Shown: piece by piece, positions 16,040-16,235 of the stretch | Position numbering within the stretch: the stretch's first letter is position 1 | How the letters are laid out: each line of letters opens with the position of its first letter | DNA from: Escherichia coli | Lineage (GTDB): Bacteria > Pseudomonadota > Gammaproteobacteria > Enterobacterales > Enterobacteriaceae | Assembly (NCBI RefSeq): GCF_016903815.1 | Contig: NZ_CP069973.1 | Reading direction: 5' to 3' (one strand) | DNA: 64,000 nt | Program-made: the position numbers and the translations under genes | Notes under the pieces: model-generated | Databases searched by the model: none | What the model saw: only the letters and a program-made list of their open reading frames with translations | What the model was told of the DNA's origin: nothing

Positions 16040-16235
16040 ATTTACCCCGCGCAACGCCCCTGCCAGCGACAAGAGTCACAGGATCAGGCGGTATGGCGTA
16101 TGGGTATTCGAACCCTTTGGGCGACCAAGGGTTCGTGGAGCAGGGGGCTAGTGCTGTTCAATCTCATCCTTATGAGGGCGAACCATAGTGTTGGAGCAGG
16201 CATATCGTTTGCACACTATGGGCATAAGGAGCAAA
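16040..16235 (+). ncRNA. candidate structured non-coding leader (possible retron msr/msd-like RNA); boundaries not resolved
   Basis: GC-rich, stop-rich stretch between A and the cargo genes with a 9-bp perfect stem (CGAACCCTT / AAGGGTTCG, 16109-16135) and imperfect ~33-nt direct repeats (each containing TGGAGCAGG) about 56 nt apart. Confidence 0.3.

Follow-up and report, generated by a model that had tools for sequence, protein, structure and literature searches.

What kind of element lies in the unannotated stretch directly upstream of a small gene cluster in an E. coli prophage? In the window, which is the whole 64-kb stretch of DNA that was analysed, a sequence-only reading had pointed to a stable hairpin followed by imperfect direct repeats at 16100-16210, and had suggested either the msr/msd of a retron or a structured regulatory RNA of another type. 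In this study, both descriptions were found to apply, and the genes directly downstream encode a type VI reverse transcriptase (RT) and a helix-turn-helix (HTH) protein. In the best explanation, a type VI hybrid RNA (hyRNA) is encoded here, the flagged stretch is the core of its non-coding half, and by analogy it carries an msDNA switch like that of Retron-Vpa2; we place the probability of this reading at roughly 0.85.

The genes that define the setting of the flagged stretch are as follows:

13491-15821, upstream: P2 gpA-type replication protein (Pfam Phage_GPA, 1e-121).
16238-16393, plus strand: SP gene of 51 aa, a predicted small toxic effector, called as an ORF with a strong Shine-Dalgarno sequence.
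16430-16750, plus strand: HTH protein of 106 aa from the second ATG (PADLOC HTH_VI, 7e-30).
16716-17666, plus strand: retron reverse transcriptase of 316 aa with a YVDD motif (PADLOC RT_VI, 1.1e-105 over the full profile; Pfam RVT_1).
19652-20686, opposite strand: portal gene, downstream of the retron cargo.

The SP, HTH and RT genes, in this order, make up a type VI retron operon (classification of Mestre et al. 2020; PADLOC retron VI), and it occupies the gpA-gpQ hotspot in a P2-like prophage. This hotspot of P2-like phages has been reported to harbour defence systems, including retrons (PMC9122126). The runner-up among the PADLOC profiles for the RT was RT_III-A at 5e-45, the RT homologue length was 316 aa, and the HTH and RT genes overlap by 35 nt. 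The SP gave no family match in profile searches; its homologues are ORFs of 47-57 aa found at the equivalent position in 21 loci. In RefSeq, the SP is named 'hypothetical protein', the HTH protein 'helix-turn-helix domain-containing protein' and the RT 'reverse transcriptase family protein', and no annotation is present upstream of the SP gene. At the DNA level, the locus shares 99.7% identity with Peduovirus P22H1. Of 5426 complete E. coli genomes, 99 carry it, chromosomal every time.

It had also been claimed that no coding feature accounts for the flagged region, and the homologues bear this out. The sole ORF across the region (16001-16393, TTG start) is the SP gene extended upstream, and in 12 of the 21 homologues this upstream frame closes at most 16 codons (1-16) from the SP ATG. 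A coding explanation was therefore rejected.

The sequence features themselves were then compared with their description. A search for inverted repeats recovered the perfect 9-bp stem, CGAACCCTT at 16109-16117 and AAGGGTTCG at 16127-16135, enclosing a 9-nt loop, TGGGCGACC; this structure is referred to as hairpin 1. The description of two related segments of about 33 nt stood in part: TGGAGCAGG is present in both, at 16136-16144 and 16192-16200 with a spacing of 56 nt, but the related part measures about 26 nt and not 33. Its best bounds are 16119-16144 (GGGCGACCAAGGGTTCGTGGAGCAGG) and 16176-16200 (GGGCGAACCATAGTGTTGGAGCAGG), which align with 22 matching positions and small gaps for a score of 13, whereas random segment pairs of similar spacing from the same window scored -5.9 +/- 3.3 and none of 5000 reached 13. 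This imperfect direct repeat of about 26 nt is far above chance. Moreover, TGGAGCAGG occurs four times in the window against 0.44 expected, and the remaining two copies (717 on the minus strand; 24835) lie within long ORFs. Secondary-structure prediction, as had been suggested, revealed a strongly structured region: the fold of 15990-16240 had an energy of -98 kcal/mol (z = -4.7 against shuffled sequence) and that of 15968-16428, the predicted whole transcript, -161 kcal/mol (z = -5.2), and a third structure z-score was -3.0. A tRNA/tmRNA search found none, and an Rfam scan of 15000-20000 at E <= 10 returned no retron family, with four chance matches elsewhere.

Relatives of the locus were drawn from E. 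coli genomes, phage records, viral contigs, one genome per species and two Vibrio parahaemolyticus loci. A plain MAFFT alignment of 12 homologues, ranging from E. coli to Shewanella, was folded by RNAalifold and yielded hairpin 1, a helix between the Shine-Dalgarno (SD) sequence and an anti-SD strand, and three further helices designated Pa, Pb and Pc. A covariance model built on 16100-16240 (R1) and a second one rebuilt from the R1 matches (R2) found 22 and then 36 loci, with exactly one match per locus that ended about 500 nt upstream of the RT. The expectation of a conserved and covarying structure was confirmed, in that the 36 loci keep the structure and compensatory changes occur in 32 of 32 modelled pairs, a large count obtained on alignments that had been fitted to the model and are thus biased towards its structure. 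The fraction of paired cells was 94-95%, against 58-66% in shuffled controls and 29-50% when the partners were slid by 1-3 columns. Both the slid controls and the RNAalifold result on the unfitted alignment agree with the fitted covariation.

One V. parahaemolyticus locus, L105, links this family to a characterized retron. Its SP has K15, I39, F43 and F45, which are the residues mutated in the SP of Retron-Vpa2 (Zhang et al., 10.1101/2025.10.22.683967), and because these residues are shared, L105 is taken to be Retron-Vpa2 or a near-identical relative. The RT and HTH protein of the window locus are 54% and 50% identical to those of L105 (the HTH identity includes R7), and one covariance model matches both loci.

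The 5' part of the RNA is laid out as follows:

15954-15962, plus strand: probable promoter, an extended -10 element TGtTATGAT with hexamer positions T, A .. A, T (near-)invariant in 12 homologues.
15970-15979, plus strand: TTGGTTAGTT, 5' strand of helix X, found as an inverted repeat and pairing with SP codons 5-8 (16251-16260).
16003-16037, plus strand: two small msr-like hairpins, from structure predictions and alignment.
16043-16106, plus strand: long stem-loop, the predicted msd body (msDNA template), from folds.
16109-16135, plus strand: hairpin 1, the predicted template for the 5'-terminal stem-loop of the msDNA.
16119-16125, plus strand: GGGCGAC, copy 1 of the conserved repeat, in the loop of hairpin 1.

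In the alignment of 12 homologues, sequence conservation begins just 3' of the extended -10 element, and the transcript would start near 15969. This element was not listed by a promoter consensus scan, which requires a -35 box. The first msr-like hairpin, GGGTA-ACTT-TACCC at 16003-16016, covaries between GC and AU; in the second, tGGAAAGT-TAAC-GCTTTCTa at 16018-16037, GGAAAG/CTTTCT is invariant in the 12 homologues and the top pair covaries. The long stem-loop at 16043-16106 is conserved at its base (CCC/GGG), whereas its centre varies and is rich in indels, with an 18-nt insertion and free sequence drift among the homologues, and it corresponds to the 63-nt stem-loop on which the msDNA of Retron-Vpa2 was mapped (10.1101/2025.10.22.683967). 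Across the 36 loci, compensatory changes were seen at each of the nine pairs of hairpin 1, with 98% of cells paired, and the hairpin was also predicted from the alignment not fitted to any model. By analogy, the msDNA template would extend roughly from 16043 to 16135 and comprise the 64-nt stem-loop and the 27-nt hairpin. Folded as DNA, the predicted msDNA is well structured (z = -4.1), and its 5' hairpin would display GTCGCCC.

The remaining elements form a riboregulator around the SP start, together with long-range helices:

16136-16147, plus strand: TGGAGCAGGGGG, 5' strand of helix Pa ('a1/a2-like'), pairing with the 3' tail at 16400-16412.
16152-16159, plus strand: TGCTGTTC, 5' strand of helix Pb, an inverted repeat with GAACAGCA (16262-16269, inside the SP gene).
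16167-16174, plus strand: TCCTTATG, anti-Shine-Dalgarno strand, from an inverted repeat and folds.
16176-16182, plus strand: GGGCGAA, copy 2 of the conserved repeat, in the 8-nt internal loop that separates hairpin 2 from the anti-SD helix.
16183-16221, plus strand: hairpin 2, CCATAGTGT...ACACTATGG, with inner stem GCAGGC/GTTTGC, from an inverted repeat and fold.
16223-16231, plus strand: CATAAGGAG, which includes the SP Shine-Dalgarno AAGGAG (16226-16231) and pairs with the anti-SD strand.
16394-16412, plus strand: 3' tail TGCGTC-CTCCCT-A-GTTTCA, pairing with 16270-16275 (Pc) and 16136-16147 (Pa).

On the plain alignment, RNAalifold paired the SD strand CATAAGGA (16223-16230) with TCCTTATG, and all eight pairs of this helix covary across the 36 loci. 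Both stems of hairpin 2 covary as well, and the SP start codon sits in a hairpin of its own (16235-16249). The three helices Pa, Pb and Pc had 94-99% of cells paired on the plain alignment. Helix Pa, whose 5' strand TGGAGCAGGGGG includes the first TGGAGCAGG copy, was placed by RNAalifold at 16143-16147 with 16400-16404, and was extended in the minimum-energy fold of the whole transcript to TGGAGC-AGGGGG paired with CTCCCT, a bulged A and GTTTCA. Its GGGGG/CTCCC part is conserved with one covarying pair, and, as read from the sequences, TGGAGC/GTTTCA is swapped in other genera for TCGAGAC/GTTTCGA, TCGAAAC/GTTTCGA or TGAAAC/GTTTCA. In helix Pb, 96% of cells pair and T-A changes to A-T, and to G-C in Shewanella and Vibrio. 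Helix Pc joins 16270-16275 with 16394-16399 and covaries at four of six pairs, and CCCT.GTTTC of the 3' tail is invariant in alignment A2. The SP gene thereby carries three helix strands, namely the 3' strands of X (16251-16260) and Pb (16262-16269) and the 5' strand of Pc (16270-16275). The minimum-energy fold of the whole transcript has the published three-arm layout. A swap test of cognate against non-cognate strands gave only modest separation for the long-range helices, because the G-run and C-run of Pa are conserved.

Helix X was paired in 80% of cells on the plain MAFFT alignment. In other lineages, TTAGTTAAG/CTTAACTAA, CTTGATGTGT/GCACATCAAG, TGTTCTAAA/TTTAGAACA and GTCATTAA/TTAATGAT stand complementary at the same two places, and complementarity with unrelated sequences, as read from the sequences, is kept in at least eight lineages. 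Since helix X crosses Pa and Pb, it must form either a pseudoknot or an alternative fold. Such a covarying pseudoknot between the 5' end and SP codons 5-8 might add a further layer of translational control. In canonical retrons, inverted repeats a1/a2 lie at the ends of the ncRNA and a conserved branching G lies just 3' of a1. When the two candidate pairings Pa and X were checked here, no branching G was conserved at the canonical position after either of them, and the base that follows Pa at its inner end is likewise not conserved as G.

The question of which repeat matters was addressed by following both copies through the relatives. It had been assumed that TGGAGCAGG is the repeat, and it is indeed duplicated here; the conserved and co-evolving repeat, however, is GGGCGA(C/A), with copies 57 nt apart. 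GGGCGAC and GGGCGAA are invariant among close relatives (alignment A2). Further away, the loop and the junction again hold a common motif, which is GGACGAA in L105, TGGTGAC in two Alcanivorax genomes, GGTGAC in a Legionellaceae genome, AGCGAAG in Nitrosomonas, TTGAGCG in Arenicella, TGGCGAC in Yersinia aldovae, GGCGACACCC in Acinetobacter and GGGCGAAG in a Hahellaceae genome. When both motifs came from one locus, their longest common string averaged 5.86 nt, compared with 4.55 nt when they came from different loci; in 10000 permutations the observed value was never reached. Four of the 36 loci (L034, L042, L051 and L053) have no motif common to the first hairpin loop and the junction. Concerted change of both copies is expected if the copies must match, as they would have to if the msDNA complement of copy 1 pairs with copy 2. 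The energies of msDNA-riboregulator duplexes were not clearly better than those of shuffled controls (z from about -0.5 to -2.4, with one locus positive), so the pairing would rest on the motif of 6-7 nt.

The candidacy of TGGAGCAGG as the functional repeat was rejected, as its copy 2 drifts freely within a covarying stem. This copy, which lies partly in the inner stem of hairpin 2, becomes TTGAGCAAA, TTTAAGTGG or TTTCAGTGA in relatives while pairing is kept. Similarity scores over 26 nt reach 7-13 only in the E. coli/Klebsiella clade and drop elsewhere to the level of the short motif. By this comparison, the duplication of TGGAGCAGG is a feature of the E. coli lineage, with copy 2 conserved only in close E. 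coli relatives; judged by conservation, copy 1 has a structural role in Pa and copy 2 no supported role as a repeat. It is conceivable, and in our view rather doubtful, that the short repeat grew in the E. coli/Klebsiella clade into the duplication of about 26 nt ending in TGGAGCAGG, and that opening of hairpin 2 lets copy 2 serve there as another place for the 3' tail to dock. If true, such a toggle would be a lineage-specific coupling of riboregulator opening to the loss or reset of the priming-like helix.

The architecture observed here closely parallels that of Retron-Vpa2. [quoted passage not shown] The same study reported an 86-nt msDNA, made up of a 63-nt core over the long stem-loop and 23 nt of a 5' stem-loop, which accumulates only when triggered and is required for SP translation; 7-nt direct repeats were noted in the msd loop and the riboregulator loop, and the authors proposed that the msDNA pairs with the second copy (10.1101/2025.10.22.683967). 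The window locus shares the order of ncRNA, SP, HTH and RT, the long msd stem-loop, the short hairpin with the repeat in its loop, the 3' tail folded back to the first arm, the stem-loops that hold the RBS and start codon, and the second repeat copy in the riboregulator loop. The SP proteins are also alike in layout, with a polar N-terminus containing QQ, a hydrophobic C-terminal helix and an acidic end, and the sizes are comparable (63 + 23 nt in Vpa2 and 64 + 27 nt here). The two systems differ in the repeat, which is GGACGAA there and GGGCGA(C/A) here, in the extended repeat of about 26 nt including TGGAGCAGG here, and in the carrier, which is a P2-like prophage here. Another member, Retron-Eco12, is a Vpa2-related type VI retron of E. 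coli that defends against lambda vir and has no detectable basal msDNA (10.1101/2025.10.22.683967). The window locus could itself be Eco12, or Eco12 could be one of its E. coli variants that are less similar at the nucleotide level.

What the present study observed directly is the set of genes, the architecture of the RNA with its conservation and covariation, and the co-evolution of the repeats. Every functional step of the mechanism is taken over from Retron-Vpa2, a system with an RT only 54% identical to the one here, and is proposed by analogy as follows. In the resting state, the RT and HTH protein would bind the hyRNA, the SP would stay untranslated and little msDNA would be made. Upon phage infection, sensed through phage recombination proteins or inhibition of RecBCD, reverse transcription from roughly 16135 down to 16043 would yield an msDNA of about 86-93 nt, which would accumulate. 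The 5' stem-loop of this msDNA would show GTCGCCC and could pair with GGGCGAA in the riboregulator, so that the ribosome-binding site would be freed, the SP would be made and growth of the infected cell would stop. On this analogy, copying of the hairpin into msDNA probably relieves the repression of SP translation.

The type VI mechanism is not uniform, because Retron-Sen3 has constitutive ssDNA and SP and relies on post-translational control (Garcia-Rodriguez et al., 10.64898/2026.04.27.721009). The first alternative is that the same type VI RNA works here in the manner of Sen3, with constitutive ssDNA and SP, neutralization of the SP by the HTH protein after translation, and loss of RecBCD as the trigger; RBS sequestration and the repeats would then be structural or RT-recognition features, with no msDNA switch. 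This mechanism was shown experimentally for the Salmonella type VI retron, in which the RBS is likewise sequestered yet not regulatory, and the HTH protein and SP form a toxin-antitoxin pair independent of the RT and ncRNA (10.64898/2026.04.27.721009). Sen3 resembles the window locus in its SP-HTH-RT operon, in a structured ncRNA within about 280 nt of the SP start, in a long internal stem-loop with a variable centre, in the sequestered SP RBS, and in a long-range pairing just past the SP stop codon that embeds the SP gene in the RNA scaffold. However, Sen3 belongs to another RT/SP lineage (cl2075) in which direct repeats are not reported, whereas the window locus groups with Vpa2 by RT and HTH identity and by the shared RNA model. 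Furthermore, the related Eco12 has no detectable baseline msDNA, and the concerted change of the repeats is hard to explain without a matching requirement. A Sen3-like mode of action is thus considered unlikely for this locus.

Secondly, the GGGCGA motifs could be sites for a single protein, the HTH protein or the RT, on RNA or DNA, rather than partners in msDNA pairing; the copies would then co-vary since both must fit one protein. The HTH protein and RT of Vpa2 co-purify with the hyRNA, and the HTH protein represses reverse transcription (10.1101/2025.10.22.683967). Two identical short motifs 57 nt apart would also suit a dimer, and the duplex-energy tests of msDNA pairing were not significant. 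Against this, msDNA supplied in trans from another retron turns on SP translation in Vpa2 and needs the motif-bearing 5' stem-loop (10.1101/2025.10.22.683967), and the lineage-specific extensions of identity found here (10 nt in Acinetobacter, 8 nt in Hahellaceae) resemble base-pairing more than a fixed protein site. Protein recognition as the sole reason for the repeats therefore appears quite improbable.

Lastly, it is scarcely credible that the stretch is an ordinary 5' leader unrelated to reverse transcription (a hairpin arisen by chance, an intrinsic terminator or attenuator, or coding sequence that escaped annotation), for although hairpins upstream of genes are common and ORF 16001-16393 formally spans the region, hairpin 1 is followed by TGGAGCAGGGGG and not by a T-run, the consensus scan for terminators and promoters has no entry at the hairpin, most homologues have a closed frame upstream of the SP ATG, and the covarying structure and motifs are kept across many genera, always beside a type VI RT.

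As a type VI hyRNA with a proposed msDNA switch, the element can also be set beside two other classes of RNA. It shares with canonical msr-msd RNAs, such as that of Ec86 (Retron-Eco1), a long stem-loop as RT template, small RT-proximal hairpins and a terminal inverted repeat by the start of the template. The template-adjacent pairing strand, however, lies here 3' of an embedded protein gene and not at the 5' end, and the msDNA would, by analogy with Vpa2, activate a toxin instead of neutralizing it. RBS-sequestering riboregulators, such as toehold-type and sRNA-activated mRNAs, likewise have an SD/anti-SD helix with an exposed loop that matches a strand acting in trans. Here, the proposed activator differs in being an ssDNA reverse-transcribed from the same transcript, and the exposed match is 6-7 nt.

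In conclusion, the RNA of this locus is of a kind already described for type VI retrons in preprints of 2025-2026, so that the original finding is correct and not new. The co-evolving repeats, as judged from sequence comparison, are a modest addition, and their co-evolution supports the base-pairing step proposed by the authors of the Vpa2 study. A prophage common in E. coli is thus seen to carry a strongly structured and unannotated RNA that has no Rfam family. This RNA is part of a form of defence, described only recently, in which reverse-transcribed DNA turns on the translation of a toxin.

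The predicted 5' end of the retron transcript (15970-15979) was found to be complementary to 16251-16260, which corresponds to codons 5-8 of SP, the small protein gene of the SP-HTH-RT operon. This complementarity is kept in at least eight lineages in which the sequences themselves are unrelated. Because the pairing would cross both Pa and Pb, the long-range helices of the retron RNA, it is predicted from the sequence to be a pseudoknot or an alternative fold.

For the two downstream genes of the operon, the mechanical ORF starts (16418 for HTH and 16689 for RT) are probably too early. 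The most likely start of the HTH gene is 16430, since it is preceded by a Shine-Dalgarno sequence (GGAG, 16420-16423), the match to the profile starts at residue 5 and, with this start, R7 is conserved. In the predicted fold, this Shine-Dalgarno sequence is held in the loop of a small hairpin, GCA-TGGAGT-TGC, at 16416-16427. The RT gene most likely starts at 16716, since its homologues are 316 aa long.

When the loop of the first hairpin was compared with the riboregulator junction among the 36 loci matched by the covariance model of the retron RNA, no motif common to the two was found in four homologous loci (L034, L042, L051 and L053). In L053, GCGCGAGAC is present in the hairpin loop and the matching CGCGAGAC lies directly 3' of the junction window, and thus the missing match is probably an artefact of the comparison window used. 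In the other three loci, the loop of the first hairpin is very short in the alignment (3-6 nt) and contains no motif, and the junction still has a GCGAG-type motif; these loci may be misaligned or may function in another way.

The motif TGGAGCAGG occurs four times in the window versus 0.44 copies expected, and the further exact copies are as follows:

717-725, minus strand, further exact copy of TGGAGCAGG, inside a long ORF
24835-24843, plus strand, further exact copy of TGGAGCAGG, inside a long ORF

No similarity to the retron RNA was seen at either of these positions, and both copies are probably coincidental.

Variants of the retron were also found elsewhere. The divergent copy in E. coli C5 (L098; NZ_CP010122.1, 2217496-2220931) has about 71% nucleotide identity to that of the window across the RNA region, adjoins DUF4236 and YkgJ-family genes and does not lie in a P2 gpA context. 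A further variant is carried by a Klebsiella Peduoviridae phage, close to the left end of the phage.

The gpA-gpQ hotspot holding the retron contains a second cargo gene, which is convergent with the retron:

17775-19139, minus strand, FRG-domain protein, 454 aa (Pfam FRG, 2e-21; PADLOC PDC-S15, 9e-98)

The PDC-S15 family matched by this protein is a candidate defence family in PADLOC, and in related prophages the gene adjoining the retron is a different one. The gpA stop codon and the probable retron promoter are separated by a very AT-rich stretch (15822-15950) in which short repeats, both direct and inverted, are numerous; this stretch may mark where the exchangeable hotspot cassette is bounded.
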